64,000 nucleotides of DNA, taken from NCBI GenBank assembly GCA_016906335.1, contig JADEYG010000004.1, positions 1,364,001-1,428,000 of the forward strand. Reading direction: 5' to 3'. The position numbers and the translations under genes were made by a program. Positions within the stretch are counted from its first letter, which is position 1. Every line of letters starts with the position of its first letter. This document shows positions 2,520 through 64,000 of this stretch, one piece after another. Origin of the DNA: Novakomyces olei (Eukaryota). The notes under the pieces were generated by a model. The model was not told where the DNA came from, ran no database searches, and worked only from the letters and a program-made list of their open reading frames with translations.

Positions 2520-2770
2520 TGTCCGTAAATTTGCGGATTTGATGTCTAAGTTGCGGATTTGGTGGGGGTAGCCCACATATATATAGACTTCGTTATACTT
2601 GACTTCGACAAGTAATAATTCTTTGACGTTCCATAAAAATAATAATGATAATAATAGTATATACTTAATTATTTTATTAAGTAATAGTCGTAGCATAGAA
2701 TAACAATAAAAGCAATAATATAGATATATCTGATCCGTATCTTAGCGGATTATGTGTTGATATTGCGGAT

Positions 2771-7126: not shown

Positions 7127-7444
7127 TGTTGTGTTTTTCTTTGTTTGGTTTGGGTACGGCTGTGTTGCTTTCACGGCAACTGTGGTGGGAAGCCAAATGG
7201 AAGGTAATAGTACTTAAAACGGTTTACACGGTCAACACGGTCGATAATCAGCGTCGGATAAAAGTGCGAACGGGCCTCCTTTTATCCTTGCTGGAACTAA
7301 CTAACTATAACTAAAAATAGAAACAACTACGGAAAAGACTGTCTAAGCCACAAAGTGGCTAACTAAAATTCCGGAATTGGAAATAATCCGCAATCGAACG
7401 GATTATCTCCGATGAAAACGGAATTATGTCATATTGATATGACA
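7127..7444 (-). repeat. 5' LTR of element A
   Basis: Direct repeat of 1162-1479, followed on the minus strand by a self-complementary PBS. Confidence 0.95.
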
Positions 7445-8328
7445 GATAATATCCGAGGTAAGATCCGAGGATGCGTTCCTTGGTTCGGAAAAAAGAAAGA
7501 TAGAGCAAAGACAAGATAATAGTAATAGTAGAAACTAAATGTCAAAGACAGAAAAATATAGTTAGGACAATAAAAGAAAGGAAACAATATTGAGAAAAGT
7601 CTTCCTTGGAAAAGATCCTTGGAAAGATCCGAAGATATGATCCTAAGTTAGGAACGAAAAGAATAATATTTTTTTTGTTGAAATATAAGATATTGAAAAG
7701 TCTTCCGAGGAAGAGATCCTAGGAAAGTTCCGAGGATAAGTTCCTAGGTTAGGAACGAACAAAAACAAGTAAAAGAAATTAAGTAACGGAACGGAACGAA
7801 ACAGAACAGACGGGTACGAAAATTTTTTTGTGACGGGTTAATATGTGAGGAAAGGGGGAAAGGAGGGAAGAAAGGCGAAGCGAAACGTAGGCGTCTGAAA
7901 GTAAAAGAAAATATATTAGAAAATATATTAGAAAATTAAATAGAGAAATTGAATAGAATAGATTAACCCGTGGGGAGCTGGGCTCACCACGGCGCTATTT
8001 ATAAGCTACGGACGGAGGAGGAAGGCGCAGCACGCTGCGAAGGGGCTGCGCCGGAAACGGAAAGAAGTAAACAAATAAATAGCGCAAAGTAAATAAACGC
8101 GCGGAAGTGTATAGACGAAATAAAAGAGGGGAAAAGGTAAGTAATGAAGAGGGGCTCCTAGGAAGGGATCCTAGGAAGGGATCCTAGGAAGGGATCCTAG
8201 GTAGGGATCCTAGGTAAGGATCCTAGGAAGGGATCCTAGGTAGGGATCCTAGGTGGGGTAAACCCTAACCATAACCCTAAACTATATTTATAACCCTAAC
8301 CCTAACTAACCCTAAGTGGTTCATTACA
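7445..8328 (-). mobile_element. 5' LTR (7844-8328) and 5' UTR of a family C element, truncated by A
   Basis: Reverse complement of 50216-51126; 8 copies of the 13-bp CCTAGGATCCCTW unit and TTAGGG-like motifs. Confidence 0.95.
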
Positions 8329-41100: not shown

Positions 41101-44100
41101 ATCAGTCGCCGACCGGTCTAAGAAGTCGTTTAATTCATCGACGAGTGCGTTGAGTTCGATTCTATCTGCATTTAATAAGTCAAGCGAGCCGTTTAATTCT
41201 TCACAGACAGAATTGAGTCCGATGCAATCAGCATTGAATAAGTCAAGCCCTGCTACAACACTCGCCAACCAGTCTAGAAGTCGTTTAATTCATCGACGAG
41301 TGCGTTGAGTCCGCTGCAATTTGCATTAAATAGGTCAAGCGAGTCGTTTAATTCTTCACAGACAGGATTGAGTCCGTTGCAGTCTGCATTGAATAAGTCA
41401 AGCCCTGCTACAACACTCGCCAACCAGTCTAAGAAGTCGTTTAATTCATCGACGAGCGCATTGAGTCCGATGCAATCTGCATTAAATAAGTTAAGCTCTG
41501 TTACATCAGTCGCCGACCGGTCTAAGAAGTCGTTTAATTCATCGACGAGTGTGTTGAGTCCGCTGCAATTTGCATTAAATAGGTCAAGCGAGTCGTTTAA
41601 TTCTTCACAGACAGGATTGAGTCCGTTGCAGTCTGCATTGAATGAGCCGTTTAATTCTTCACAGACAGAATTGAGTCCGATGCAATCTGCATTAAATAGG
41701 TCAAGCGAGTCATTGAATTCTTCACAGACAGAATTGAGTCCGTTGCAGTCTGCATTGAATAAGGCACGCGAGTCATTAAATTCTTCACAGACAGGATTGA
41801 GTCCGTTGCAGTCTGCATTGAATAAGGCACGCGAGTCTTTAAATTCTTCACAGACAGGATTGAGTCCGTTGCAGTCTGCATTGAATAAGTCAAGCCCTGC
41901 TACAACACTCGCCGACCAATCTAAGAAGTCGTTTAATTCATCGACGAGCGCATTGAGTTCGATTCTATCTGCATTTAATAAGTCAAGCGAGCCGTTTAAT
42001 TCTTCACAGACAGGATTTAGTCCTATGCAATCAGCATTGATTAAGTCAAGCCCTTCTACATTACTCGCCGGCCGGTCTAGGAAGTCGTTTAATTCATCTA
42101 CGAGTGCGTTGAGTCCGCTGCAATCTGCATTGAATAGGTCAAGCTTAGCAATAAATCTCGCGGACCCGTCTAAGAAGTCGTTTTTTTCTTCGCACAGAGG
42201 AATGAATCAGATGAATTCTGCATTGAATAAGTCAATCTCTGCAATAATTTCATCCGATCAGTCTAAAACGCTTACCGTTGTTTATGAAGGTCCGCTCAAT
42301 GGATCGAGTGTCGGCTATTTGTCTCAAAGATTTTCTAAGGTCTCGAGCTCTGCATCGAGCAAGACTCCCGTCGCTACACTGTCGAGTTTCTCTGGAGCGA
42401 AAAACAACAAGCCATTACAGAAGAAGTCTAAGCCTATGGCAAAGTCTACTCCTCTGAACCCTCCATCTAAATCGAAGTCTACGTCTAAATCCAAGGAGTC
42501 TTCAAACAGATTATTGACGATGACTTATACGGACGATAAGGACTTGTCAAAAAACATCAGTCTGGCAACTCCTTCATCCATGCTCAGTTCCGAGTCTATT
42601 TGTGGGTCGAGGAAAGAGAATAGAACTACTTCATCTCTAGCAGCAAGCACTTCGTTAGCATCAAGAAAAGATATGGAGGGTTCAGTCAATCTGACAAACG
42701 AATCATCTGAAAAAACTTCTATTCAAATTTTATTTAACAACTACGGATCTAAAGGCTTTGCTAGTCTGGATTCATCAATTTCCTATTCTGCTATTCTTCC
42801 TAAAAAAGACCCGAAACCAGAGGCCCCCTCTAGAACTCTTGGTTTTAGTGTTTTTGTTGCTTCTACCCTTAGTACCTCTAAGACTTCAAGTACTTTTAGT
42901 ATCACCTCAAGCACTTCTATGACCTCAAGCACTTCTAGGACTTCAAGTTCGTCTAAGACGTCGAGTACTTCTGGTAATTATAGTACTTCTAGGTCTTCAA
43001 GTACTTCTAAGACTTCAAGTACTCCTATGACTTCAAGTACTCCTAGTACTTCTAGGTCTTCTAGTACTTCTAGTACTTCTAAGTCTTCAAGTACTTCTAA
43101 GACTTCTAAGACTTCAAGTTCTTCTAAAACTTCTAGTACTTCTATGACTTCAAGTACTCCTAGTACTTCTAAGACTTCAAGTTCTTCTAAAACTTCTAGT
43201 ACTTCTATGACTTCAAGTACTCCTAGTACATCTAGTACTCCTAGTACTTCTAGTACTTCAAGTACTTCTATGACCTCAAGCACTTCTAGGACTTTAAGTA
43301 CTTCTGGTACTTCTAGGTCTTCAAGTACTTCTAAGACTTCAAGTACTTCTAAGACTTCTAAGACTTCAAGTACTTCTATGACTTCAAGTTCTTCTAAGAC
43401 TTCTAGTACTTCTATGACCTCAAGCACTTCTAGTACTTCTAGTACTTCTAAGTCTTCAAGGACTTCTATGACTTCAAATACTCCTAGGTCTTCTAGTACT
43501 TCTAGTACTTCAAGTACTTCTATGTCTTTAAGTACTCCTAGTACTTCTAATACTTCTACGACCTCAAGCACTTCTAGTACTTCTAGTACTTCTAAGTCTT
43601 CAAGCACTTCTATGACTTCAAATACTCCTAGGTCTTCTAGGTCTTCAAGTACTTCTAAGACTTCAAGTACTTCTAAGACTTCTAAGATTTCAAGTACTTC
43701 TATGACCTCAAGCACTTCTAGTACTTCTTTGTCCTCAAGTACTCCTAGTACTTCAAGTATTTCTATGACCTCAAGCACTTCTAGTACTTCTAGTACTTCT
43801 AAGTCTTCAAGCACTTCTATGACTTCAAATACTCCTAGGTCTTCTAGTACTTCTAGTACTTCAAGTACTTCAAGTACTTCTATGACCTCAAGCACTTCTA
43901 GGACTTTAAGTACTTCTAAGTCTTCTAAGACTTCAAGTTCTTCTAAAACTTCTAGTACTTCTATGACTTCAAGTACTTCTAGTACTTCTAGTACTTCAAG
44001 TACTTCAAGTACTTCTATGACTTCAAGTACTCCTAGTACTTCTAGTACTTCTTTGACCTCAAGCACTTCTAGGACTTTAAGTACTTCTAAGACTTCAAGT

Positions 44101-45522
44101 TTTTCTAGTTCTTCTAGTACTTCTAGTATCTCTAATATTTTTGCGCCTCATACATCCTCCGGCAGTGGTCGTAAGAGCGCACGCTCAGGGCTGACAAACC
44201 CTCTTTATGCGCCTTTAGAGTTACGTTCAATAGAATCTATGTTTTACGAGAAAGATTGTTGGACTAGTCTAGAAAAGGAGCCATACCAGCAAGTCCTGTC
44301 TTCATTTTCAAACACGACAACCCGTGAAAGGGCTAGAGACAAATTGTTTTGTCCAAAGGCATCGTCTCTACTGGTAACCAGGATAGTAGACAAATACCCG
44401 TTTGTCAGCACCAGATTTACCGATGACTTCGTGGACATTAAAGTCAACGAACTGGTTAAAAAAGCTCAAGGACATTACTGTCAAAGTGATCCTTGTTTTA
44501 ATAAGCACCACGAATCAGCAGCCAGTTTTATTAAGGACTATGAGAAAACGAAGGGATTCTTTAAACCCGATTCATACTACTATGAAGCGCAAGCAGGCCA
44601 TTTGTATTTTAGTATTCCTGAATTCAAATTATCAGTTTCTGTTTCTAGCGAACTGATTCTAGAGTATTTAAATGGTTGCCAAGAAACATCAAGATGGAGC
44701 GTGAGCGAGATGATTCGTATTAATCGTCTGGTGCATTTTGATATTAGGCGAATTGTTACTAAGGCAAACAAGAGGCTTCGTGAAGAAAACTACTTGGTGA
44801 TGATTCAAATAGACTACGTTTATTTTCAATACTGGAATGAATCTCAGTTTAAAGAGGCATCAACAGATTCGCTTGAATTTACTGATGACTACCGAGAATT
44901 TTACACTAGGTTACAGCACATTGAAACAATTGGCGAGTATAAGCAATACCAAATGAAATGTATTGATATTGATGATAGGAAAAACTTAATTATCACACCC
45001 TTTATTGAAGCACAGAAAGTCTGCGGTCCGTGGGAAGAAGAATTTCCTGAATTAAAAGAATTGTTTTTTAAAAAGTTTGGCTCGTGGCTGTTCAACTTAA
45101 CTTTAGCTCTAAACGAGCCGGGTAAAGATGAACTTTGGCGAAAAGCGACGGAGGATTCAAATCTTGATGCAAACATTTATATGCACGGACTGTTTGTACG
45201 GTCGACCTGCAAAGTTTTCGAATTACTCTTAGAACTTAATCGTGAGCTCCGACCTTATTTCATATCGCAGACGTCAGTAACGGATCTGGTGACGAATGTT
45301 GTCTTAGACACGATTCTTGCAGTAAATACTCTTTTAGCTGACTCCGGCAGCAGACATTTTGTACAGCTCATGTATTTGGGAGTTATTACCCAGTCATGTG
45401 GAAGCGGCAGGTCTATTTATCCGGATTGGGTCGCTCTCAGTCAACCAAACGTCTTCCATGGTCTCGAGTCTTTTGTGGAATTCTGCTTTATGAAATGTAC
45501 ACGGCATTACAATTTGCTTTGA
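17200..45522 (+). CDS. Giant secreted mucin/adhesin-like repeat protein (~9,440 aa once three 1-bp deletions are restored)
   Basis: Signal-peptide-like N-terminus. ORFs 17200-32160, 32157-37880, 37877-41308 and 41305-45522 carry the same repeat and are joined by single-base deletions at ~32158, ~37824 and ~41276. Unique Cys-containing C-terminal domain. Confidence 0.8.
20810..42240 (+). repeat. Coding minisatellite of 63-nt and 93-nt units with higher-order repeats
   Basis: Units SALNKSSEPFNSSQTELSPLQ (21 aa) and SALNKSSPATTLANQSKKSFNSSTSALSPLQ (31 aa); a 2721-bp period is visible from variant markers. Confidence 0.97.
42870..44130 (+). repeat. 9-nt (ACTTCTAGT-like) coding repeat, TSS/TSK/TSM Ser/Thr tract
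   Basis: Directly visible. Confidence 0.95.
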
Positions 45523-46258: not shown

Positions 46259-47718
46259 ATGTCTGGATCGACCGCGATGCAACCGACGCATCCCTCGTCC
46301 AATGAAGGGCTGCAAGTTCAAGCCCCGTCAGCAAAGATCTCCATTCAAAAGCTGAGAGGGGCCGAAAACTACGACATTTGGGCTCAACACATGAAAGCCC
46401 AACTGAACGGCCTAGGCCTATTTGGCTACGTTACCGGACGAAATAAGGAACCTGAAAGAAAAGGCCTTAAGAAAGAACCGGAAACAAAGACAATAGATGA
46501 CAACGAGTCAATATTGTCAGACGACGACTTCGAGGAGGGAAACGAAGAGCTTAACATTTGGAAGCGAAATTCGTCCCTCGCTCTCTGTCACATTCTGGGA
46601 AACATTTCCTTGGAAATCAACCGAAGAGTCAAAAGACTCAACAGCGCAAAGGAAGTCTGGAGATGTAATGAACCACTTAGGGTTAGTTAGGGTTAGGGTT
46701 ATAGATATAGTTTAGGGTTATGGTTAGGGTTTACCCCACCTAGGATCCCTACCTAGGGTCCCTTCCTAGGATCCCTACCTAGGATCCCTACCTAGGATCC
46801 CTTCCTAGGATCCATTCCTAGGATCCCCTCTTCATTACTTACCTTTTTCCCCTCTTTTATTTCGTCTATACACTTCCGCGCGTTTATTTACTTTGCGCTA
46901 TTTATTTGTTTACTTCTTTCCGTTTCCGGCGCAGCCCCTTCGCAGCGTGCTGCGCCTTTCTCCTCCGTCCGTAGCTTATAAATAGCGCCGTGGTGAGCCC
47001 AGCTCCCCACGGGTTAATCTATTCTATATAATTTCTATTCTATTTTCTATCTATTTATTTTCTATTCTATTCAATTTCTCTATTTAATTTTCTAATATAT
47101 TTTCTAATATATTTTCTAATATATTTTCTTTTACTTTCAGACGCCTACGTTTCGCTCCGCCTTTCTTCCCTCCTTTTCCCCTTTCGTCACAGGAGACTCC
47201 TTAAGCGCGAGTACGCCAGAGCAGGTTTTTCATACATAGGAACCTGCTACTCGAACTTTTTCAACTTCAAGCTTGGAAACGAAGGAGGACAAACTCCAGA
47301 AGACTACTGTCGAAAATTCGTCGACCTACTGGAATCCTACCAAGTTGGAGGAGAACAAGTCGGAATGTTTACTCAGATATTTACCTTTTTCTCTGGAATA
47401 GAGAGAGACTATGAGCAGTTCGTGCAAATTCAGAAGGACACGTACGACGTCCAGAAACCCGTCGATCTCGAAACCATGATCGAACGGTTCCTAAACCACA
47501 GCAGGGGAAGAGCAAATGAGTACCCGATAGCTCTGGTCACCGATCGAAACGGTGGACCGAAAGGTAAAGTGCGCTGCTCGTTCTGCAAAAAGCCAGGCCA
47601 CACAGAGAACGCCTGCTGGAGAAAGCATCCTGAAAAGAGGCCTAGTCGCGAGAACAAACAGATCGAGCGGACAAAGACTTTTCTTGCTACGGCCCATGTC
47701 TCTACCTTGGACGTGTGG
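46259..47718 (+). pseudogene. gag: Copia gag of H, split by solo LTR
   Basis: KLRGAENYDIWAQHMKAQL, AKEVWR|LLKREY in frame across the insertion, CSFCKKPGHTENAC. Confidence 0.85.
46664..47191 (+). mobile_element. Solo LTR of family C
   Basis: TG...CA, 5-bp TSD GGAGA on both sides. Confidence 0.95.
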
Positions 47719-48100
47719 TGTTATGTTGCTACCTAGCACGCCTGCTTAGGTAGATTCGGACGTAGACTCTTAACTGCTCGTAGTAATAAACGCTTTTGTT
47801 ACTATAAGCTTCTGCCAGTCGTACGCGGCTGGCTACAGCAGGGGACTCCAGATGGAAGTTAACTCTTCCAACAAAGTTGATGAACCGTAAAGTTATAAAG
47901 GAGAGAAGCCCCTTTATATCCTTTACGGGCTACGTACTCACTAATCTCACTAACTAAAATAACTCAAAAACTATCTCGAAAAGGAACTAAGAGGCTAAGC
48001 CTCAACAAGTAAGCTAAACTACTTTACTCGGTGCAAGTTCTGTGCAAGATGCACTGTACTTGCACCATGTCAGGTGCAAACCATGACATCACTCCCCTCC

Positions 48101-49448: not shown

Positions 49449-50215
49449 TCACTTGGATCGTTCCAGGTATGCTTTAATTGCATCTTGAGCATTGTGTAAG
49501 TTCTCCAAGGGTTCCCAAGTACGTTCTTCTTCAGGGTAACCTTTCCAATGAACAAGATATTCGCGTTTTCGACCGCGTCCACGGTGTTCGCAAATATATT
49601 CGACGTCATACTCCTGTAGATCTGGGAGTATATCTGGTACGGCATGATCTGTAGGTTCTCGGTCAAACCTATCAGCTGTAAACTTCTCAAGTAGTGTTTC
49701 GTTAAACACGTCGTGCATCTGCACCGAGGGGGGTAATTTGAGACGGTACGTGTTGTGTTTTTCTTTGTTTGGTTTGGGTACGGCTGTGTTGCTTTCACGG
49801 CAACTGTGGTGGGAAGCCAAATGGAAGGTAATAGTACTTAAAACGGTTTACACGGTCAACACGGTCGACACGGTCGATAATCAGCGTCGGATAAAAGTGC
49901 GAACGGGCCTCCTTTTATCCTTGCTGGAACTAACTAACTATAACTAAAAATAGAAACAACTACGGAAAAGACTGTCTAAGCCACAAAGTGGCTAACTAAA
50001 ATTCCGGAATTGGAAATAATCCGCAATCGAACGGATTATCTCCGATGAAAACGGAATTATGTCATATTGATATGACAGTACGCACTCGTCCCAACTTTCT
50101 GTAGTCTTCGTAAGGACCCAATCTCGTGTGGTCAAGCTTCGTCCTTGGTCGTGTGGTTTCAATGTGCTTTCGGCGAAGCCAAACATAATCACCAGGTGTT
50201 AACTCGATAGATTCT
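49449..50215 (-). pseudogene. pol: C-terminal integrase + chromodomain of E pol, interrupted by solo A LTR
   Basis: GDYVWLRRKHI...KLDHTRLGPY, then YRLKLP...EYDVEYICEH...YLVHWKGYPEEERTWEP. Confidence 0.85.
49751..50077 (-). mobile_element. Solo LTR of family A
   Basis: Matches 7127-7444 plus a 9-bp duplication; TSD GTACG on both sides. Confidence 0.95.
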
Positions 50216-50727
50216 TGTAATGAACCACTTAGGGTTAGTTAGGGTTAGGGTTATAAATATAGTTTAGGGTTATGGTTAGGGTTTACCCCACCTAGGATCC
50301 CTACCTAGGATCCCTTCCTAGGATCCCTACCTAGGATCCCTTCCTAGGATCCTTACCTAGGATCCCTACCTAGGATCCCTTCCTAGGATCCCTTCCTAGG
50401 ATCCCTTCCTAGGATCCCCTCTTCATTACTTACCTTTTTCCCCTCTTTTATTTCGTCTATACACTTCCGCGCGTTTATTTACTTTGCGCTATTTATTTGT
50501 TTACTTCTTTCCGTTTCCGGCGCAGCCCCTTCGCAGCGTGCTGCGCCTTCCTCCTCCGTCCGTAGCTTATAAATAGCGCCGTGGTGAGCCCAGCTCCCCA
50601 CGGGTTAATCTATTCTATTCAATTTCTCTATTTAATTTTCTAATATATTTTCTAATATATTTTCTTTTACTTTCAGACGCCTACGTTTCGCTTCGCCTTT
50701 CTTCCCTCCTTTCCCCCTTTCCTCACA
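50216..50727 (+). repeat. 5' LTR of C (10 x 13-bp units, TTAGGG motifs)
   Basis: TG...CA, 512 bp. Confidence 0.95.
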
Positions 50728-52790
50728 TATTAACCCGTCACAAAAAAATTTTCGTACCCGTCTGTTCTGTTTCGTTCCGTTCCGTTACTTAATTTCTTTT
50801 ACTTGTTTTTGTTCGTTCCTAACCTAGGAACTTATCCTCGGAACTTTCCTAGGATCTCTTCCTCGGAAGACTTTTCAATATCTTATATTTCAACAAAAAA
50901 AATATTATTCTTTTCGTTCCTAACTTAGGATCATATCTTCGGATCTTTCCAAGGATCTTTTCCAAGGAAGACTTTTCTCAATATTGTTTCCTTTCTTTTA
51001 TTGTCCTAACTATATTTTTCTGTCTTTGACATTTAGTTTCTACTATTATTATTATCTTGTCTTTGCTCTATCTTTCTTTTTTCCGAACCAAGGAACGCAT
51101 CCTCGGATCTTACCTCGGATATTATCCTAGGAAGACTTTTACTTTGAACTCACCTTCTACTTTGTCAAATCTTTTTATTTCTGCCTTACAATTCTTTCAC
51201 GTCTATTATAATATTTCTCCTGAGTGGTCTCTTCTTTCAAGATGGACACCGATCAACCTCAACAGCCGGAATTCGAGGCCTTCCTCAATCAGCTCAAGGA
51301 GCGCCTCCTCAATCTCGAAGCCGAATCGGCGAGAGATAAGGCAAAGATCCAGACTCTGGAAGCTATTTCCTCATCGAATCGCGGTCCAACCAAATCATTG
51401 GTCCGCGTACCCGACTTCTTTACCGGTCGTCGAGCGGATCTCAGCTCGTTCCTTGCCCACGTGAAGCTTTACATGATCAGCAATCCTGGTCACTTCCCAA
51501 CGGACAAACTCAAGGTCCTCTTTGTCGCTTCTCTTTTGAGAGACTCTGCTTTTCGCTGGTTCCAGCCCTTACTGGACCCTTGTAAGACGGTCCTTACAAC
51601 TACAACCGCTGGAGGCCGGTCGTGTATAGTCTAAATAGAAGTAAAGGAATTACAGAAACCAAGGGAACAGAAAGCGATTATTGTAAGGCTTACCAGGAGT
51701 AATATAATATATTACTCCCACTTTGAGATAATCAACCCGTGAAGGGCGAGAGGCCTTCACGGGCAACTATAAACTAAACTAAGTTGCGGAGGAGCGGATG
51801 CTCCTTCGCATTCTAAACTACTCTTCCCAAACTAACTTATGCGAAGGTCGCACAAGTTAGAGCGGGAAGCTCTCAACCTAAACTAGACTATGGAAATAAC
51901 TATGAATGTTCTCGCGCTAGCGGAGTGCGAAGGGTCGCACTCGCTAGCGTGCGAGAATGAGAACGGGAAGCGAGGTCCGTGCACATTGTGCATGGAGCCC
52001 CTCGCTCCCGTGGGCCAAGCTGGCTTAGTGCGCGTACCTACATGCGCACTAAGACAACTTCTACGTCCCAAGACCATCGCATTACGCGCCGACTGGTCTT
52101 GGGCCGCGTTGGCGAAGCTTGCGACGCGCGGACATCCCAAGTCCGACTACAGGCGTCGCCCCTCGCTTCCCAACGCGGTTGTCAGGAACTCGCCAAGGCG
52201 AGGATCATGACAGTATCCCCCCTCCCTTGGGCGAGGTCCCCGCGCCCGCAAAACATAAAATATCCCAAAACAATAGTAAGGCGAAAATAAAAACAACAGA
52301 TTTCCCAGCTTTCAACATAATAAGGAACATTGCAACTCTTCCACAGTCTTGTCTCAATAAAATAGCATGGGTAAATCAAATCAATCAATAAATGTTCGCA
52401 TTGCCCTGCGTAAGGAAAGAAAATTAAAATGCGAGCACGAACACATGTAGACCATACTGTCTTCCAATTGCAAACCAAGTCGTCTCCCTGGTCAGTGTTG
52501 TCGTATCTCCTCCGTATAACGTGTGTATGTCGTGCGATAGAATAAACAATAGTCGCGTTCAATTTGTCAACGCCGTAAATGATTAAAGCGGTGTTAGCTT
52601 CATCGTTTTCGATTTTAATAATTTTTTTTTTGCATGATTTTCAAAAAAGTTTTTTCCAAATAGCGATAAATAACTAGTGCGAATTGTGTATTATATCGCA
52701 GTCGTAAACAAAAATCAAGAGTTGAGTCTCGCGATTGCGTAAGATTACGTGAGTTGAATGACGTAACCTGTATCGCGATTAACGTAAACA

Positions 52791-55700
52791 TCATTGCTTC
52801 GGCTTAGCCGGGTGTGATCTGTGAAATTCTTTCACTAAATCGTCGCAATTTGTCAAATTGCCTGCCGGCTCCCAAGTGCGATTAGCACTATCGTATCCCT
52901 TCCAGTGTACAAAGTATTCCAATTTATTTCTTCGCTTCCTGGAGTCCAACACTTCTTCTACCTCCCACTCTGGTGTATTCTCAATTATTATTGGTAGTGG
53001 TGGTGCTGCCTGCCGTCGCACAATCGTAGACGTAGACTTGTATGATTCCAATAAAGAAGCATGGAATACTGGGTGTATTCTCATCGTGTTCGGTAGATCC
53101 AACTTGTATGCACGTAAACCGATACGTTCCAAGATTGTAAAAGGTCCAATCTTCCTGTAATCCAACTTGTCGCTTGGCCTAGTGGTACTGATGTTCTTTC
53201 TCACTAGCCATACTTTCTGACCGACTTCAAAATTCTTGTCGACACGGTGCGTATTAGCAAACCGTGCTTGATCGCTAATGGCGTGCTTGGTTTCGATCTG
53301 TAAAAGGCGATGTAGCGTTCGCAAGAAATCAATCCGATTGTCCGCCGATGGACACTGCCGTGCTGTTGCTATCGTAAAACGGCATTTGGGGTGATACCCA
53401 TATAAAGCGTAACTAGGGGTCGCTTTTATTGATGATTGCTCAGTATTGTTATATGCGAACTGTGCAAAAGGTAGCAAGTTTACCCAATTCGTTTGTTGGT
53501 AATTGCTGTAAATTCTCAAATATTGCTCGAGGCTCTGATTAAGCCTTTCCGTTTGTCCATCGCTCTGGGGATGGTACGCAGTTGATAACCTTTGCTTGAT
53601 ATCACAATGTGCGAGTAAATGCTTCGTAAAATGTGATACGAAAACTGATCCACGATCTGAGATAATTTCTTCTGGCAGTCCAAAGTTAGCAAATACTCTG
53701 TGAGCGTATAGCAATGCTAGTTCTTTCGCGCCCATGGTCTCGCGTATTGGTACAAAGATGCCTATCTTCGTAAAGCGACATACTATAACCCAAATTGAGT
53801 CGTAGTCCTTGCCTGTAATGACATCTCTTGACACGGGGAGCTTCACAATGAAGTCCATAGCAATGCTTTCCCAAGGCTTTGTAGGCACTCGCAACGAATG
53901 TAGTAGACCATAAGGAGCATGACGCGATGGTTTACTTCGTGCGCAAGTGTCGCATGAGTCCACATAGTTAAATACGTCCTTCCGCATCCTAGGCCAGTAG
54001 TAATTTCGTGTCACAAGCTCTAGCGTCTTAGCCTGTCCGGGGTGACCTGAAGTCTGCGAATCATGACATTCTTGCATGATTGATAATCGCAAATCGTTGT
54101 CTCTGGGTATGTAAATCAAACCCGAGAACATTAACAGACCTTCCTTGTCTATTGTATAGTTCTCCAAATGAGCAGCACGAGGCTTGCTCTTTAACTCCTC
54201 AATAATATTTTTGCAAATGCTGTCCTTCTCGTAGCATTTCTTAATATCCTGTGCCAGCGTTTTGTTGTCCTCAATCGCAAACACAAATTGCGATTTGTCC
54301 AAAAGCACCATTGTTCGTTCTGGCTTTTCCTCCTCTTCGCTGCTAACGTAATCGCTTCTTCGCGATAAGGAGTCAGCCTTGTGGTTAAACTTTCCCGCAC
54401 GATACACGATCACAAAATCGTAAGACGCAAGTAACTGCGACCAGCGCATTTGCCGTCTATTCAGGACACGCGCGGTCCAAAAGTACACAAGATTGCGATG
54501 ATCCGTGTATATCGTAGTTTTGTGAAGGGGACTCTCCAAGTATACCCTCCATTCCCGAAGACATACAACAATAGCTAATAGCTCCTTGTCGTGAATGTCG
54601 TAGTTCGTCTCTGCGCTTGTCATCTTGCGCGAGTAAAATGCGATTGGTCTCATATCGCCGTTCTCGTCTTTTTGCGAAAGGATCCCGCCTATCGCAAAAT
54701 CTGAGGCGTCCGTTTCCAAAAAGCTCGGCTTTTGTGGATCAAAGTGCACAAGAATAGGTGCGCCTAAGAATGCATCCTTCAACGCATTGAATGACTCCCT
54801 GCATTCGTCGCTAAACACGAACTTTGTATCCTTCTTTAAAAGCCGGGTAAGAGGTACCGTAATCTTGCTGTAGTTGGCGATGAATCTTCGGTAATAGTTC
54901 GCCAGTCCCAGGAACGACATAACCTCCTTAACATTCTTTGGCTCGGGCCATGTTTCAATCGATTTGACCTTCGTATTTTCCATCGACACACCTTTCGTTG
55001 AAATCACGAAGCCAAGAAACTCCGTTGTGTCGGTATGGAATTCGCATTTCTCCAATTTGACAAATAAATTGCCTTGCGAAGTCTCTCCAATACTCCGCGC
55101 ACGTGCTCCACGTGTTCTTCCTCTGTATTTGAGTAAATCAGTATATCGTCCAAGTAAACGACAACATATCGATCCAGGCAATCTCGCAAAGTGTCGTTGG
55201 CGAGTGCTTGAAACGAAGCCGGGGCATTCGTAAGCCCAAACGGCATGACTTGGTACTCGTAGTGGCCGTACCTCGTACGAAAGGCCGTTTTCCATTCGTC
55301 GCCTTTTCGTATCCTAACCAAATTATATGCACCGCGAAGATCCAATCGCGTAAAAATAGTTGCTTGGCGAATGCGATCTAGAAGTTCGGATATAAGCGGT
55401 AATGCATATCTGTTTTTGACAGTGATTGCGTTCAGACCGCGATAGTCAACGCATAATCTAAGCGATCCATCTTTCTTTTTGACAAATAAGATCGGCGCCC
55501 CCGCGGGCGACGACGACGGTCGTATAAAACCTTTAGCGAGGTTTTCCTTGAATAATCTCTCAGCGTTTGCAATTCGCGTTCGGCGAGCGGGTAGATCGGA
55601 CCAAAAGGCGGCTTTGCATTTTCGGCCAAGGGTATCGCATGATCCCAAGGTTGATGTTTCGGCAAAACGTCCGCGTTCTTCTTCTCAAATAGGTCGCGAT

Positions 55701-56337
55701 ATCCCTCGTAGAACCCAGGCAATGTAACGCGAGGCTTGATATCTTGCTCGTCCGTTGCGTACACACATAAAATACCTGATTCTCCATTACGAGCCAATCT
55801 TGCAAATTCGGTTGCGCTGACTTGCATGGATTCGGATAATGTACTGCACTTCAAACAGTTCGCCAAACAGTAGTTCGACTTAAACTCGACGTTTGCGCGA
55901 CTCCATCCGATCGTAGGCTCATGCTTGTCCAACCATGGCTTGCCCAAGATAGCATCGTATCCACGAAGAGGTATGACATTGAAGGTCATCCTTTCTCGAT
56001 GTTCGCCAATTGATATATCCATCTCGCTGGTGTGAAAGCGAATACCTCCTGACTTGATTGTCCTTCCATCAACGACTCTGATGGGCTCGGTCTCGCTCTT
56101 CTCCGTAAGCTTAATAAAAGCATGCGATGCGAGTTTCTCGCTGATAAAATTAGAGGTAGCTCCTGAGTCAATCAGGGCTCTCGCGTTCAACTCTCCATCC
56201 TCTGTCTTGACTTTCACGACGACAGTCAGATGCTTTGCTTTGTCCGGTTCCGTAAAAACTGTCATAACTTCTGGTGGCCTAAATTGTTGTTTGCCCAGAT
56301 CAGGCCTTTTCATTGGACCTGGGCGTTCGCTTTTCCC
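52791..56337 (-). CDS. pol: Pol of F (PR-RT-RH-INT-chromodomain) with two 1-bp frameshifts
   Basis: [45 protein letters not shown]...YFVHWKGY. Shifts at ~55553 and ~55070. Confidence 0.9.
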
Positions 56338-57242
56338 AAATCGGAAAATTCGTGCGTGAATGCAGCGACGTGTTGCTGATTGTACGTCTTCTTCTTCTGC
56401 TTGCATTCTCTTGCTCGATGACCCACGCGTCCACAGTTAAAGCATTTGATGTTGCTTTTGCGATGGTTGTTATCCTCCTTTTCCAAACTAATCGCGTCCA
56501 CATCCATAGGAGTAAAACTTGTACTCGCGTTTGCAGCCGGGCGGTTGTTGGAATATTTCACGGAACCGCGGCTTGCACTCTCGATGTGCCTGTCGGATAT
56601 TCTTCCATCCACGCGAACTGAAATCTCAATCATTTCATTCAAAGTGCGGGGTCTGTCCATCCTGGAAAGCTCATCCTTGATGCGATCCTTCAGCCCCTGA
56701 TAATACATGAACGTCAGCGCACTGTCATTGAAATCCAAATACGAAGCAATTCTTTGAAAAATGCTCGCATAAGATGCTGCTGATCCACGTTGTCTCAAGG
56801 CGGCTAACTCTCTTTGCGCCTGACTCGCCCTGTCGACCTTGCCGAAATTCGCGGCCAACGCTTCGCAAAAGGCTTCAAAAGTAGGTACTACCGAAGCGAA
56901 GTCGTTGTTGCGAAGGTGTGGTTCGAACCACGCAAATGCGGCGTCCCGCAAATACGAAGCTGCGAACAAAACCTTCGAACGCTCGTCGCGAAACTCGTGC
57001 GGTTTCAACATGATGTAAAGGCGAAGCTGCGCCAAAAAATTCTCGACCATTCTGCGGTCCCCACGAAACGCGTCGGGCTTCATCACCGCTGGTCCGTCAC
57101 TCGTCGGAGCTCTCTTAGCTCGCGAACCGATCTCCTGGGTCAGATGCGCAATGTGCGATTGCCCTTTCTCGTTCTCTGCCTTCAACTCGGCAATTTGAGT
57201 TTGCAGGGATTGCAAAAAGGTGTTGAGTTCCTCTTGCGACAT
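56310..57242 (-). CDS. gag: Gag of F
   Basis: FAASYLRDAAFAWF, PMDVD, CFNCGRVGHRAREC. Confidence 0.92.
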   Translation of the reverse strand: MSQEELNTFLQSLQTQIAELKAENEKGQSHIAHLTQEIGSRAKRAPTSDGPAVMKPDAFRGDRRMVENFLAQLRLYIMLKPHEFRDERSKVLFAASYLRDAAFAWFEPHLRNNDFASVVPTFEAFCEALAANFGKVDRASQAQRELAALRQRGSAASYASIFQRIASYLDFNDSALTFMYYQGLKDRIKDELSRMDRPRTLNEMIEISVRVDGRISDRHIESASRGSVKYSNNRPAANASTSFTPMDVDAISLEKEDNNHRKSNIKCFNCGRVGHRARECKQKKKTYNQQHVAAFTHEFSDLGKANAQVQ

Positions 57243-58859
57243 CTTGTCCCTCGTACCGCAAAACTCGTAATCGTAATCGTTCTTCTAGAACCGTTCTTCG
57301 TAAATTGTTCACTCAATCGTCGACTATCCAAGCCGATACTCAATAACTCAAAATAACTGTGTTTCACCGGAACACTCGATAACTCAAAATTCTCAAACTC
57401 GAATCCACGTCCTTCACTCGACGCTTTAACCGTTTTAACTTCCGTAAAAATCCGTAAAAATAAGTACCGAACCGCGTCTTTGACTCGACGTCCGAAACTC
57501 TCTCGAATCCGAAGGAAATAAAACACAAACAATTCCAAAAAACTTCAAACTTCAACGACCGGGACGGGTTGATTATAGTGTAAGACGGTCCTTACAACTA
57601 CAACCGCTGGAGGCCGGTCGTGTATAGTCTAAATAGAAGTAAAGGAATTACAGAAACCAAGGGAACAGAAAGCGATTATTGTAAGGCTTACCAGGAGTAA
57701 TATAATATATTACTCCCACTTTGAGATAATCAACCCGTGAAGGGCGAGAGGCCTTCACGGGCAACTATAAACTAAACTAAGTTGCGGAGGAGCGGATGCT
57801 CCTTCGCATTCTAAACTACTCTTCCCAAACTAACTTATGCGAAGGTCGCACAAGTTAGAGCGGGAAGCTCTCAACCTAAACTAGACTATGGAAATAACTA
57901 TGAATGTTCTCGCGCTAGCGGAGTGCGAAGGGTCGCACTCGCTAGCGTGCGAGAATGAGAACGGGAAGCGAGGTCCGTGCACATTGTGCATGGAGCCCCT
58001 CGCTCCCGTGGGCCAAGCTGGCTTAGTGCGCGTACCTACATGCGCACTAAGACAACTTCTACGTCCCAAGACCATCGCATTACGCGCCGACTGGTCTTGG
58101 GCCGCGTTGGCGAAGCTTGCGACGCGCGGACATCCCAAGTCCGACTACAGGCGTCGCCCCTCGCTTCCCAACGCGGTTGTCAGGAACTCGCCAAGGCGAG
58201 GATCATGACAACCCTTCCAGCGGCATCGAACCTCCAATTCTTTCCGATTACAGCATCTTCACAAGCGAACTTACGCGCATGTTTGGTGACGTTGACAACC
58301 AAGCAACGGCAGAAAGAGAGCTTCGGAAGCTTTCCCAAACCGGTTCTGTTGCCAATTATGCGTCTCGTTTCCAGCAGCTGATGTCTCACCTGCAATTCGA
58401 CAATGACGCAACTTGTTTCATGTTCTACAACGGATTAAAGGATTACATTAAGGATGAGCTTGCTCGAGAAGGACGTCCTTCCTATTTCGAAGATTTGGTT
58501 AGCCTTAGCATTCGTCTTGACAATCGCCTTTATGATCGGCGCCTCGAACGCAACTCTACCAATCGCCCTTCTCGATTCCCTCAGCAGAGCCGATCCTTTC
58601 CCTCAACCTTCTCGTCGGCTCCACGAAGCCCCAAGCAAAGCGACGCAATGGAAGTCGACGCGTTAACTACTCAGCCTCGAAAACTTACGGCTCAAGAGCG
58701 CAAACATCGGATCGAAAATAACCTTTGCCTGTACTGCGGCAAAAGCGGCCATTCCATCAACAAATGCCGAAAGATCCCCGACAAGCCTAAACTCGCTAGT
58801 TCCCTTTCAAATGTGGCTTCCATTTCGTTCACCAAAGGCATTCCTGAAGACCCCTCTTC

Positions 58860-61800
58860 GGGAAAAGCCTAGGCTCGAACTTCTCTCGGTCGCCCAGCTC
58901 GAGCCAGATTGGGCGCATCCCCGCGCATCGAATATTCACCACAAAATCTACTACTCCCGAACAATCGTCGCATCTCATTGCGAATACAATTATTTCCTAT
59001 CACGATCACGAGATACCGGCACGAGCACTGATCGACTCCGGCGCCACTTCCAACTTTATGTCGGAGGCCTTCGCTAAACAAAATCGTCTTCCAACTGAAG
59101 CCAAGCAAACGCCCGACCACTTGCGCGGAATCGACGGCTCCCCAATATCGAACGGCCTCGTGACTCATCATACTACTCAACTTTCCTTATGTCTCGGTAA
59201 ATCAAATACCCAGCACCATGAACTTATCCAATTCAATCTCATGCCAATCTCCGGCTATAACCTTATTCTCGGAAAGCCCTGGTTGGACCTTCACGATCCA
59301 AAAATTACGTGGTCCAAGGGCTTAATCCACTTCGACTCTTCATATTGCAAAAAGTCCTGTTTTCGCACAGACTCTTCTATCCCTATCCATATGGTTGCTT
59401 CCTCGACTATGGCGCGACACCTTTCGTCGCCTGAGTCACAATGTTGGCTTGTTAGCGCTGCGACACTTTCGGAAGCCTCAACAAACAACACTCCTATTCC
59501 GCAACCATACAAGGACTTCGAGAACCTCTTCGACAAGAGAGCTTCTACTAAACTTCCATCCCATCGGCCATGGGATCATTCCATTCCCCTCCAAGACGGA
59601 GTTTCGCCTCCTTACGGACCTATTTATTCCCTCTCAGAGCCTGAGCTTAAAGCTCTCAGAGAATACCTCTCCGAAAATCTTACAAACGGTTTCATCCGAC
59701 CTTCTACTTCGCCTGCGGGCGCTCCCATACTCTTCGTTAAGAAGAAAGACGGCTCACTTCGCCTATGTGTCGACTACAGGGGCCTTAACTCAATAACAGT
59801 TAAGAATCGCTATGCCCTGCCACTCATTTCCGAACTCTTGGATCGAGTTCAAACAGCCAAAATATTTACTCGCCTAGATCTACGCGGCGCCTACAATTTG
59901 GTACGCATCAAAGAAGGCGACGAGTGGAAAACGGCATTCAGGACTCGCTATGGACATTTCGAATACCAAGTGATGCCTTTTGGCCTTACAAATGCGCCTG
60001 CATCATTCCAAGCGCTGGTAAACGATGTCTTGAGGCCTTATCTTGACCGATCCGTAGTCGTCTACTTAGACGACATCCTCATTTACTCCGACAGCCTAAA
60101 AGAACATGTGCAACATGTCCGAGAAGTCTTACACAAGCTGCAAGAAGCCAGCTTGTTTGTCAAACTGGAAAAGTGTGAGTTCCACACTACCCAAACGGAA
60201 TTTCTTGGGTTCATTATTTCTACAAAAGGAATATCGATGGCTCCAGATAAAGTGCAGGCAGTACAAGACTGGCCTCGCCCACAAAATACTACTCATGTTA
60301 TGGCCTTTCTAGGCTTTGCAAATTTCTACCGACGTTTCATTCATTCGTACAGTAAGATGGCACACCCACTTACTCAACTTCTTCGAAAAAACGTCCCGTT
60401 TGATTGGACCTCAGAGACTCAGACGGCCTTCGATGCCCTTAAATCCTCCTTCGTCTCTACCCCAATACTTCGTTACTTCGACCCCGACAAGCCAGCAGTA
60501 GTAGAGACCGATGCTTCTGATTACGCTGTGGCGGGAGTCATTTCTCAAACCGATGACGACAACATTCTTCGCCCTGTCGCCTATTATTCCCGGAAAATGA
60601 CGCCTCCGGAACTCAATTACGAAATCTACGATAAGGAAATGTTGGCTATAGTGGCTTGTCTCAAAGAATGGAGAGTATACTTAGAACAGCCAAGGCACCA
60701 GACAATCATCTATACAGACCACCGCAATTTACAACATTTTCTCAAAACTAAACAACTCAACCGACGACAAGTCCGATGGGCGCAACTTCTAGCCTCATAC
60801 GACTTCACTATTATATACCGGCCCGGAACCAAGAATGGGAAAGCTGACGCACTGACGCGACGCAGCGACTACCCCCTTACCAAGAAGGACGATCCCGATC
60901 GCTCCCAGCCTCTCTTAAAATCTCATCAGCTAGTATTCGCTGCAAGCGCCACGAATCCCCTATCCGACCTCGAACGGAAAATTGTCGCCGCCTACAGCCA
61001 AGATAAAAAGCTGAGCGAAATAATAAAGCTGTTGAAGACACCCGAAGCATCAAATCACCTCGGGAAGTACAAACTAACCGATTCGGGACTCCTCTTGCTC
61101 CAAAACCTTATCGTCGTACCTCAGGATGCCAACCTTCGGCGCCTGATTATCGCGGAAAGCCACGACCTGCCTTCAGCTGGGCATGGTGGCCAAGCGAAAA
61201 CACTTGAACTCATATCTCGACAATACTATTGGCCAAAAATCCGCCAACATGTCGACGATTACGTCAATACTTGTGACACGTGCGCCAGATCAAAGGCCAT
61301 ACGGCACAAGCCTCTCGGGGAGCTCTCTTCTCTCCCCATACCCGAACAACCGTGGAGTTCCATCTCCATGGACTTCATTGTAAAATTGCCACCTTCATCG
61401 GGCCTCTCAAGCACACAGCAATGCGACTCTATTCTCGTCATAGTATGCAGACTTACCAAAATGGCTCACTTCATCCCTTGCAACGAGTCTATGGACTCTC
61501 CGACACTGGCGAACATCTTCATTCAGTACATCTACAAGCTTCATGGACTCCCGCAAAGTATCATTGCGGATCGCGGTTCTCTATTTGTCTCGCAGTTCAC
61601 AAAAAGCCTCTGCGCGCAGCTCAAAATCAAGCAAAACATCTCTACGGCCTACCATCCTCAGACGGATGGCCAGACAGAGCGCCTCAACCAGTCGCTTGAG
61701 CAATATCTTCGCGCATATTGCAACTACCAGCAAGACGATTGGGTTACTCTACTCCCATTGGCTGAGTTTGCCTACAATAACGCGTCTCACTCCTCCACCA

Positions 61801-62417
61801 AAGAGTCCCCGTTCTACGCCAACTATGGCTACCACCCAGTGTGCAATATTCAATTAAACTTGTCTCCAAGCCCAGCAGCAAACGAACGCCTACAATATAT
61901 ACGGGCATTGCACAACACCATCAAGGCCGAGCTGGAAAACGCATTAAGCAGCCAAGCCAAATACGCAGATAGGAATCGCCTACGCCACGAATTCAAGCCT
62001 GGCGACAACGTATGGCTACTCCGTAAACACCTTCGTACGGACCGGCAGTCCGACAAACTCGACTACAAACGTCTCGGACCTTTCCAAATACTCGAACGCA
62101 TCGGTACTCGATCATACAAGCTGAAGCTACCACAGTCTATGCGTGTTCATCCAGTATTTCATATTTCGCTACTGGAACCATACAAAACCTCCTCTCAATT
62201 CCATCGGCAGCAACTCCAACTTCCCGATCCAGTCGTTTCCGACCAAGAACCTGAGTATGAAGTCGAATCTATCCTAGATCACCGGAAATTGGGACGACAT
62301 ACGTACTATCTGGTCCACTGGAAAGGTTACTCTATCGCCGAACGCACCTGGGAACCACTCAAAAACCTTCAAAACGCTAAGTCACTGGTCCAAGAGTACC
62401 ATAGGACACGAAACTAG
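58860..62417 (+). CDS. pol: Pol of C (intact, entered by -1 frameshift)
   Basis: Frame is open from the slippery site through [25 protein letters not shown] and chromodomain EYEVESILDH...YLVHWKGY. Confidence 0.93.
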   Translation, partial: GKSLGSNFSRSPSSSQIGRIPAHRIFTTKSTTPEQSSHLIANTIISYHDHEIPARALIDSGATSNFMSEAFAKQNRLPTEAKQTPDHLRGIDGSPISNGLVTHHTTQLSLCLGKSNTQHHELIQFNLMPISGYNLILGKPWLDLHDPKITWSKGLIHFDSSYCKKSCFRTDSSIPIHMVASSTMARHLSSPESQCWLVSAATLSEASTNNTPIPQPYKDFENLFDKRASTKLPSHRPWDHSIPLQDGVSPPYGPIYSLSEPELKALREYLSENLTNGFIRPSTSPAGAPILFVKKKDGSLRLCVDYRGLNSITVKNRYALPLISELLDRVQTAKIFTRLDLRGAYNLVRIKEGDEWKTAFRTRYGHFEYQVMPFGLTNAPASFQALVNDVLRPYLDRSVVVYLDDILIYSDSLKEHVQHVREVLHKLQEASLFVKLEKCEFHTTQTEFLGFIISTKGISMAPDKVQAVQDWPRPQNTTHVMAFLGFANFYRRFIHSYSKMAHPLTQLLRKNVPFDWTSETQTAFDALKSSFVSTPILRYFDPDKPAVVETDASDYAVAGVISQTDDDNILRPVAYYSRKMTPPELNYEIYDKEMLAIVACLKEWRVYLEQPRHQTIIYTDHRNLQHFLKTKQLNRRQVRWAQLLASYDFTIIYRPGTKNGKADALTRRSDYPLTKKDDPDRSQPLLKSHQLVFAASATNPLSDLERKIVAAYSQDKKLSEIIKLLKTPEASNHLGKYKLTDSGLLLLQNLIVVPQDANLRRLIIAESHDLPSAGHGGQAKTLELISRQYYWPKIRQHVDDYVNTCDTCARSKAIRHKPLGELSSLPIPEQPWSSISMDFIVKLPPSSGLSSTQQCDSILVIVCRLTKMAHFIPCNESMDSPTLANIFIQYIYKLHGLPQSIIADRGSLFVSQFTKSLCAQLKIKQNISTAYHPQTDGQTERLNQSLEQYLRAYCNYQQDDWVTLLPLAEFAYNNASHSSTKESPFYANYGYHPVCNIQLNLSPSPAANERLQYIRALHNTIKAELENALSSQAKYADRNRLRHEFKPGDNVWLLRKHLRTDRQSDKLDYKRLGPFQILERIGTRSYKLKLPQSMRVHPVFHISLLEPYKTSSQFHRQQLQLPDPVVSDQEPEYEVESILDHRKLGRHTYYLVHWKGYSIAERTWEPLKNLQNAKSLVQEYHRTRN

Positions 62418-62679
62418 CGCCCAGACTACCGCCAGTACACCTCTATGGCCACCCAGTCCACCTTGATCCTCTTACGCTTCCGCTTACCCCTCAAACTGCC
62501 AGATATCCCAACAACCAATTATCCTATCCCAAAAGTTGGGTTAAGTCCCGACAAACTACCACCACTCGCGAAATCAGGGTTAACCAATAACCCTAGGGTT
62601 TACATTTATTGGAGTGGACAGTAGGGTTATTTAGGGTTATTTAGGGCTTATAAATTATTACTCTGCGAAGCATTAATTT

Positions 62680-62715
<36 letters not shown>

Positions 62716-62717
<2 letters not shown>

Positions 62718-63130
62718 ATTCTTGGGTCGCCGGTTCCGATTCCGATGGCGGGGCCTCACTCTCAACGGGCTCCTCCACCTCGTGCTCCTCCTCAAGCTTA
62801 TGCAGCATTTCGAACGCTCTCAAACGCGCATTCGCCGACACGAGCTCCTCTTGAGCCGATTTCAAGGCCGCGCGCAATTCCAACACATACTGCGTAATCG
62901 CCTCTAGGGGGTCCTCTCGACCGCGCTTAACCCCGCGGGCCCCCCCACAAGCGTTGCTGCATGTCACTAAGCTCGAACGGGTACTCGCCGTCACACGGCT
63001 TTCCCGCATTCGCACAACGCAAACACTTTGGCTTTTGGCGACCCGTTCGACGCACCCACACACAATCGTGGGGTTTGCCAAACGCAGTACACCTCGAGCA
63101 CGGACCAGCAACACTTCTCTTCTGCTCTTC
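62716..63130 (-). CDS. Antisense Zn2Cys6-like + coiled-coil + acidic tail protein (frameshift in G7 run; start unresolved)
   Basis: CSRC-x8-C-x12-CLRC-x6-C at 63100-62993, in a frame not shown in the ORF track. It joins the 62716-63114 ORF if one G is removed from 62940-62946. Confidence 0.65.
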
Positions 63131-63236
63131 CTATGGATGGATCAAATTTTTTCTCTCACCCTCCTTTTATTCAGTATTTGTCGCTACATTACTTATTTGC
63201 CCTCACAGGAGTTCGCGCCTCCGAGGGGGGGTATCG

Positions 63237-63722
63237 TGTAATGAACCACTTAGGGTTAGTTAGGGTTAGGGTTATAAATATAGTTTAGGGTTATGGTTAG
63301 GGTTTACCCCACCTAGGATCCCTACCTAGGATCCCTTCCTAGGATCCTTACCTAGGATCCCTACCTAGGATCCCTTCCTAGGATCCCTTCCTAGGATCCC
63401 TTCCTAGGATCCCCTCTTCATTACTTACCTTTTTCCCCTCTTTTATTTCGTCTATACACTTCCGCGCGTTTATTTACTTTGCGCTATTTATTTGTTTACT
63501 TCTTTCCGTTTCCGGCGCAGCCCCTTCGCAGCGTGCTGCGCCTTCCTCCTCCGTCCGTAGCTTATAAATAGCGCCGTGGTGAGCCCAGCTCCCCACGGGT
63601 TAATCTATTCTATTCAATTTCTCTATTTAATTTTCTAATATATTTTCTAATATATTTTCTTTTACTTTCAGACGCCTACGTTTCGCTTCGCCTTTCTTCC
63701 CTCCTTTCCCCCTTTCCTCACA
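63237..63722 (+). repeat. 3' LTR of C (8 x 13-bp units)
   Basis: TG...CA, 486 bp. Confidence 0.95.
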
Positions 63723-64000
63723 TCTTCGCATAAGTAAGCCATTTGACCATAGAGGTTCTCCAAGATTGGAATTCTCTGTGGGTCATAGAATGCCCATTCA
63801 GCTTTGCTGGTTCAGGCAGCTTGATTTTGAAATCCATTTCTATTGAATGAAACCAATCGAACAGTGTTTTTAATTATTAAACTAATAAAGAGTATTCAAA
63901 AATCCTGGTTGCTGTTTTCCGCTCTCCAAGTGTTTGTGATAATCTCTTTCAACTTTATCCGGATCTTCTCCTTTGTAAAGTCGAACCTTAAATTCGTCCT
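63723..64000 (-). mobile_element. 5' portion of element B (5' UTR and gag start, ATG at 63837)
   Basis: MDFKIKLPEPAKLNG...WLTYAK joins in frame, through the duplicated GAAGA, to TGGNVTGISDIDLISMFLE at 8329+. Confidence 0.8.

Follow-up and report, generated by a model that had tools for sequence, protein, structure and literature searches.

An LTR retrotransposon in the 64-kb window (the whole stretch of DNA analysed here) bears, on the strand opposite to gag and pol, an additional open reading frame between pol and the 3' LTR. Other copies contain an uninterrupted frame of about 138 codons, from an ATG to a TAG, and the window holds a form of it that is broken twice. We regard it as fairly probable that the frame is a real, element-borne antisense gene and that the window copy is its pseudogene. 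Judged from its sequence, the encoded protein would have the build of a small dimeric nuclear regulator.

The retrotransposon, here called element C, is of the Ty3/gypsy chromovirus type and contains the antisense frame in the following setting:

50216-50727, plus strand: 5' LTR of element C, with TG...CA ends and a 13-mer present in 10.2 copies
50229-50418 (5' LTR) and 63250-63413 (3' LTR): 5' part of the LTR, with TTAGGG units followed by the 13-mer array
51581-58210, minus strand: nested younger Ty3/gypsy chromodomain element, inside the leader/gag of element C
58051-58872, plus strand: gag frame of element C, its 5' part overlapped by an LTR of the nested element
58848-62417, plus strand: pol of element C, with Pfam protease, RT, RNase H, integrase, Tf2-type SH3 and chromodomain
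62681-62712, plus strand: A32 run (T32 on the strand of the antisense gene), adjoining the antisense stop codon
62716-63133, minus strand: remnant of the antisense extra ORF, broken twice; about 138 codons in intact copies
63223-63231, plus strand: GAGGGGGGG, read as polypurine-tract-like, immediately ahead of the 3' LTR
63237-63722, plus strand: 3' LTR of element C, with TG...CA ends, telomere-like TTAGGG units and the 13-mer in 8.2 copies

The spacer between the end of pol and the 3' LTR measures 820 bases and holds the antisense frame; on the minus strand, AATAAA motifs lie further downstream of the antisense stop and of T32. Named relatives of the element C pol are mostly fungal (Berkeleyomyces, Ustilago, Microbotryum and Absidia); the top identity, 59%, is to contigs without a name. 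The 5' and 3' LTRs of the element are 94.6% identical to each other, and the 3' LTR is 99.4% identical to another LTR at 7840-8328. No clean target-site duplication was seen, the 5' LTR being preceded by ATTCT and the 3' LTR followed by TCTTC. With this divergence between its own LTRs and no such duplication, element C may have arisen by recombination between two copies. The LTRs of the nested element (51581-52212 and 57579-58210, 632 bp each) are 100% identical, and the nested element is therefore a very recent insertion into element C; its spacer (52213-52790) showed no antisense ORF of a similar kind.

Further repeats accompany element C in the window. The A32 run at 62681-62712 is uninterrupted between pol and the antisense ORF, with TAGGGTTATT repeats alongside at 62622-62651, and the contigs of public DNA runs break at it. 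In the LTR, the telomere-like TTAGGG units come first and are followed by the 13-mer array CCCTACCTAGGAT, with overlapping CCTAGG and GGATCC palindromes. An LTR with leader of the same family lies at 7445-8328 on the minus strand; it shares 99.4% identity with the 3' LTR of element C (63237-63726) and 96.6% with the 5' LTR and leader of that element (50216-51126). A diverged LTR copy of element C (85%) at 46664-47191 is overlapped at its end by a 234-aa frame at 47032-47736 on the plus strand, in which zf-C2H2_10 scores below threshold (24.8 bits against a cut-off of 26.2).

Elsewhere in the window, a different Ty3/gypsy element, whose LTR-like repeats lie at 1162-1482 and 7127-7445 and recur once more at 49751-50080, has a 425-aa frame at 1464-2741 (minus strand). 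This frame belongs to no Pfam family, is located on the sense strand between pol (2950-6198, minus strand) and the LTR copy at 1162-1482, and may be a sense-strand extra ORF. About 21 to 28 kb of the region 17197-45522 consists of tandem repeats whose unit lengths, 63, 93 and 156 nt, are all divisible by 3; an 18-nt array at 42907-44126 comes in addition. Giant open frames of 4987 aa (plus strand) and 2322 aa (minus strand) run through this region, with many weak coiled-coil-type matches as the only Pfam result; a very large repetitive coiled-coil gene and a satellite in frame by chance are the two alternatives.

The antisense frame as it stands in the window is divided among the following features, listed in its own reading direction:

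63131-63133, minus strand: TAG stop directly before the Cys frame, at the site of the ATG start in other copies
62993-63100, minus strand: six-Cys cluster, read as C-x2-C-x8-C-x12-C-x2-C-x6-C
62940-62946, minus strand: G7 run, in which the extra G shifts the frame of the window copy; six G elsewhere give a single frame
62803-62907, minus strand: five-heptad leucine-zipper-like helix, residues 75-109
62719-62802, minus strand: acidic Pro/Ser-rich tail with 11 D/E and 1 K/R in 28 residues, predicted to be disordered

The minus-strand frame at 62927-63130 translates to EEQKRSVAGPCSRCTAFGKPHDCVWVRRTGRQKPKCLRCANAGKPCDGEYPFELSDMQQRLWGGPRG, a peptide of 67 residues with six Cys that ends at a TAA just past the G7 run; in the window, this Cys frame has no upstream ATG. 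The frame one base off (62716-63141, minus strand) reads, from the G run on, GVKRGREDPLEAITQYVLELRAALKSAQEELVSANARLRAFEMLHKLEEEHEVEEPVESEAPPSESEPATQE and stops at 62716-62718. Along it come a KRGR basic patch, then a long run of heptads and finally an acidic tail. Joining both parts through one four-letter step at the G run yields a read-through of 137 residues. The six-Cys peptide with x2-x8-x12-x2-x6 spacing that the initial annotation had read on the minus strand is present at 62927-63130 (Cys at 62993-63100), and the layout it described downstream of the G run, a basic patch followed by a heptad coiled coil and an acidic tail, was confirmed in the off-by-one frame.

Other copies were represented by contigs of two public DNA runs, X1 and X2, that cover 62300-63300 and stem from two studies with two organism labels; two further runs, X3 and X4, contributed no aligned contig. 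The base at 62940 is missing from one of the X1 contigs (depth 1065 of 1981) and from the sole covering X2 contig (6.61 of 6.61), and a second X1 contig (depth 916) is the same as the window across 62835-62993 and keeps the G7 run; contig depths are not copy numbers and indicate only that the G6 and G7 branches are both well represented. All aligned X1 and X2 contigs have added bases behind 63131 and an A>T change at 63133. The added bases were aligned as A and T in X1 and as AT in X2, which are the same letters, and the minus strand of both runs reads ATG directly ahead of GAA GAG CAG, in frame. The rebuilt X2 form stays open for 149 codons, as far as the piece extends, and has an M 11 residues ahead of CSRC, and the rebuilt X1 G6 form behaves in the same way; the X1 G7 form and the window both reach a stop 57 residues on from CSRC. 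Four forms were seen, namely the window (TAG, G7), the X1 G7 branch, the X1 G6 branch and X2 (G6). The whole frame is found in two of these four, and the ATG in all aligned X1 and X2 contigs.

These alleles bear directly on what the initial annotation had said of the locus. Its hidden antisense coding frame within element C is borne out, with a natural intact form in other contigs, and the removal of one G that it had used to fuse the two frames occurs naturally as the G6 form of the X1 and X2 contigs. Its proposed check of G-run length in other copies returned both G6 (X1 and X2) and G7 (X1). The start, which it had left unresolved, is the in-frame ATG found in the X1 and X2 contigs at the place of 63131-63133, and this ATG supersedes the GT-AG mini-introns suggested at 63131-63159 and 63184-63206. 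We also considered a 28-nt GT...AG stretch at 62904-62931 (minus strand) that would join the frames in the G7 copy, and rejected it because the G6 copies explain the frames without an intron. An intron of 28 nt would be shorter than usual for fungi.

Because the ORF is uninterrupted in X1 and X2 contigs, the window copy is best understood as a pseudogene of a gene that exists elsewhere. Since the X1 G7 branch (916) is about as deep as the G6 branch (1065), an intact ORF is evidently not required for copies to persist or spread. The well-represented broken G7 branch suggests that the protein is not needed in cis for the persistence of a copy, and the antisense protein could act in trans or be dispensable.

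We then asked how far the frame bears the marks of coding sequence. When all six frames of the 64-kb window were scanned for a relaxed six-Cys pattern, there was a single occurrence, and none of 100 block shuffles contained it. The ORF stretch has a GC content of 58.9% (0.589), compared with 0.45-0.46 in its flanks and 0.485 in pol, and this GC island matches the ORF. In the C-terminal half, GC at the first, second and third codon positions is 0.73, 0.41 and 0.69, respectively, and in pol it is 0.54, 0.40 and 0.52, with the second position lowest in both; the Cys half (0.57, 0.56 and 0.59) is without codon-position periodicity. All three plus-strand frames are open as well, over 105 to 128 codons across the antisense stretch. 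Because the stretch is GC-rich and these three frames are all open, openness of the antisense frame alone is weak evidence.

Comparison of the window with the variants gave 16 substitutions in the ORF, all of them outside 62964-63108, the region of the Cys cluster (P = 0.00075 for random placement). This substitution-free Cys region could have come from gene conversion between copies or from contig collapse of shared sequence. None of the 16 substitutions created a stop, and at least one stop would be expected in 68.5% of random placements. Eight were synonymous and eight non-synonymous, against a neutral mean of 5.3 synonymous changes, a difference that is not significant (P = 0.12).

Between the Cys module and the helix lies a linker of roughly 27 residues (48-74), which contains the KRGR patch. 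Heptad positions a are taken by L75, V82, L89, L96 and L103, and positions d by I78, L85, A92, A99 and F106. The occupancy of a and d is 10 of 10 across 35 residues that include neither Pro nor Gly, which was matched in 0 of 5000 shuffles of residues 48-137. A linker followed by heptads, the arrangement of the Zn2Cys6 family, is present at the sequence level, and the zipper would serve for dimerisation. AlphaFold modelled the 74-aa C-terminal piece as a single helix with a pLDDT of 95-99 at residues 11-50, followed by a low-confidence tail. A dimer prediction with two copies of this 74-aa half scored 0.04 against a mark of 0.32 and has no bearing either way. Pfam returned no bZIP family, for the C-terminal half at E <= 10 or for the read-through at E <= 0.01, and ahead of the helix there is only the short KRGR.

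The Cys module itself was compared with the Gal4-type zinc cluster. It is basic: residues 11-47, a stretch of 37 that covers the cluster and one further residue, include 9 K/R and 2 D/E. A passage in PMC5542705 gives the Zn2Cys6 spacing consensus as CX2CX6CX5-12CX2CX6-8C; the first loop of the element C cluster has 8 residues, not 6, and the other four spacings fit. Against Pfam Zn_clus (PF00172), the 67-aa frame scored 16.8 bits (E 0.0077) and a 44-aa cut 18.3 bits, both short of the gathering cut-off of 21; the matches were partial, with E values of 0.0025-0.0077. Residues 31-47 contribute nearly all of the score; on its own, the second half of the cluster (RQKPKCLRCANAGKPCD, residues 30-51) gave 17.3 bits over Zn_clus profile positions 15-31. 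The first half alone had no Pfam Zn_clus match. In the 137-aa read-through, Zn_clus was absent at E <= 0.01, and a coiled-coil DUF was the sole Pfam family there.

Structure prediction for the Cys half, made from a single sequence and without metal, reached a pLDDT of 68.9 and gave four beta strands in two hairpins, at a pLDDT of about 74. This low-confidence model does not have the two short helices of a binuclear cluster. A Foldseek search of the model against the PDB found nothing at E <= 0.001 (best E 2.1), and a wide VIA-align comparison was uninformative, with a best Z of 2.5; one of its 18 rows was a TFIIS zinc ribbon (Z 2.1). In both LTRs of element C, inverted CGG-N-CCG pairs were absent, and only a few direct or everted CCG pairs were found.

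The Gal4 architecture proposed in the initial annotation is accordingly supported in one respect and not in another. The order of cluster, linker, coiled coil and acidic region stands, as does its remark that the first loop is non-canonical (x8 observed, x6 in the consensus); the Pfam Zn_clus check that it had named remained below the curated cut-off for both the 67-aa and the 44-aa query, at 16.8-18.3 bits against 21, and the first half of the cluster was unmatched. The transcription-factor reading is in this sense partly supported.

Searches for relatives were uniformly negative. A word-index search of a 5.8-billion-protein collection with the 137-aa read-through returned no relative of 75-240 aa or of 241-2000 aa, and HMMER with the 67-aa Cys half against 1.84 billion representatives gave 0 matches at E <= 0.001, Zn2Cys6 proteins included. 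PDB sequences yielded 0 matches at E <= 10, and a scan of viral contigs found no related locus. A metagenome locus (L001) on a high-GC bacterial-type contig matched in the zipper only (LRLRAFEMLH) and was judged spurious; a prokaryote locus (L002) in a proteobacterial MAG matched residues 92-127 only and was judged spurious from the match alone. In the ESM Atlas, the top score for the 67-aa half was 0.80, below the meaningful level, and led to a cluster of hypothetical proteins with one member of known origin, from Basidiomycota; this candidate was set aside. A literature search, with subscription journals mostly outside its coverage, turned up no publication on a retrotransposon that encodes a zinc-cluster protein.

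We propose that the element C family carries an additional antisense gene between pol and the polypurine tract and 3' LTR. In its intact form, the gene would start at the ATG that corresponds to 63131-63133 of the window, stop at the TAG at 62716-62718 and specify a protein of about 138 residues in four parts: a basic six-Cys module predicted to bind metal, a KRGR linker, a five-heptad zipper helix and an acidic disordered tail. The window pseudogene would have arisen through loss of the ATG, with TAG in its stead, and through an extra G that splits the frame. Transcription may be driven by an antisense promoter within the 3' LTR or next to it. The protein would enter the nucleus and dimerise through the zipper, with the Cys module on DNA or chromatin, and the acidic tail might act on transcription of the element or of host genes, by analogy with HBZ. 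Candidate targets in the LTR are the CCTAGGATCC-containing 13-mer array (8 to 10 copies) and the direct CCG pairs around TATAAATA.

A sceptical reader could hold that there is no gene here at all, only a GC-rich non-coding spacer or a decayed captured fragment in which the open frame, the Cys residues and the heptads arose by chance and are drifting. We judge this quite unlikely. It would account for the lack of homologues, for a dN/dS that is not significantly below neutral (P = 0.12), for the good representation of the broken G7 form and for the openness of both strands; however, neither the Cys pattern (0/100) nor the heptads (0/5000) were matched in shuffles, ATG and stop flank the GC island exactly in two haplotypes, the Cys region is free of substitutions (P = 0.00075), and the C-terminal half has codon-position periodicity. 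Given a real antisense protein, the metal fold may be a different one, for example a Cys4 zinc ribbon with two spare Cys, and the protein might bind protein or RNA (element RNA, Gag) and have no part in sequence-specific transcription. The two CxxC pairs 21 residues apart, the two hairpins of the AlphaFold model (pLDDT of about 74) and the first half that Zn_clus leaves unmatched are consistent with such a fold. Yet the model is of low confidence, no solved zinc ribbon rose above Z 2.5, Zn_clus is the only family-level signal, though a weak one, and the combination of basic cluster, zipper and acidic tail is typical of transcription factors. We consider this reading rather unlikely.

The protein could also be a true miniature Gal4-type Zn2Cys6 factor, with two Zn, a zipper dimer on paired triplets, an acidic activator and its own LTR as target. 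The order of its parts is that of the N-terminus of this family (cluster, linker, coiled coil, acidic region), four of the five spacings fit, the second half of the cluster scores 17.3 bits to Zn_clus, and the named relatives of pol are mostly fungal, as is the Zn2Cys6 family. The bit scores of 16.8-18.3 against 21, the x8 first loop and the unmatched first half nevertheless count against it, as do the read-through without Zn_clus at E <= 0.01, the HMMER search without a Zn2Cys6 protein at E <= 0.001, the beta hairpins of the low-confidence AlphaFold model and the LTRs without inverted CGG-N-CCG, and we find membership in the family doubtful. The most specific form of our own proposal is a dimeric, chromovirus-encoded antisense transcription factor with an atypical x8 zinc cluster, expressed from an antisense promoter at the 3' LTR and binding the palindromic 13-mers of its own LTR or the CCG pairs around a TATA-like box; taken as a whole, it is a long shot. 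What we carry forward is the broader reading, a real antisense gene with a pseudogene in the window, and the ORF appears best placed among the antisense extra ORFs of LTR retrotransposons, as a variant of them, rather than in the Gal4 family.

Plant elements have a described class of antisense ORFs in this position, between pol and the 3' LTR, and in the passages that treat them some products are nuclear and a regulatory role is suggested (PMC7264820). The element C ORF (62716-63133, minus strand) belongs to this class by position, as it lies antisense between the end of pol at 62417 and the start of the 3' LTR at 63237. As those passages describe them, the plant ORFs share its location and strand, but they belong to non-chromovirus lineages and have no clear similarity to known proteins except SMC and transposase_28 domains (PMC7264820), whereas the element C product would be a small protein that combines a Cys cluster with a zipper and an acidic tail. 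Gal4-type Zn2Cys6 factors have the order of parts in common with the element C product, and the second half of its cluster matches their profile. Unlike these factors, the product has an x8 loop, is about 138 aa long, is without the middle homology region and is encoded by a retrotransposon.

The brtn gene of Boty-like elements was reportedly described by Zhao et al. (2011) in Virology. It is a fungal antisense gene in Boty-like Ty3/gypsy elements of Botrytis cinerea (PMC8365987, PMC4227169, PMC7264820). Common to both is an extra antisense gene in a fungal Ty3/gypsy chromodomain element, a likeness at the level of description; the passages of these papers that deal with brtn assign it no Cys cluster or zipper. 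The best functional analogue may be HBZ of HTLV-1, described in the relevant passages as an antisense product transcribed from the 3' LTR, small and nuclear, with an activation domain and a leucine zipper, that modulates proviral transcription (PMC3736048, PMC4776189). The likeness, as far as those passages describe HBZ, is that of an antisense zipper protein. HBZ is the bZIP protein of a human retrovirus, whereas the predicted element C product has a Cys cluster in place of a bZIP basic region.

Because repeats are masked, an antisense gene of this kind is invisible to standard annotation pipelines. As the passages in PMC7264820 describe them, antisense extra ORFs lack informative domains, and the element C ORF has a readable, transcription-factor-like build. 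Intact and broken natural alleles side by side would make the function of such an antisense gene directly testable. Should the product bind its own LTR, the element would have a self-regulatory circuit like that of Tax and HBZ, which is not described for LTR retrotransposons. If the proposal holds, this retrotransposon would carry its own regulator, as complex retroviruses do.
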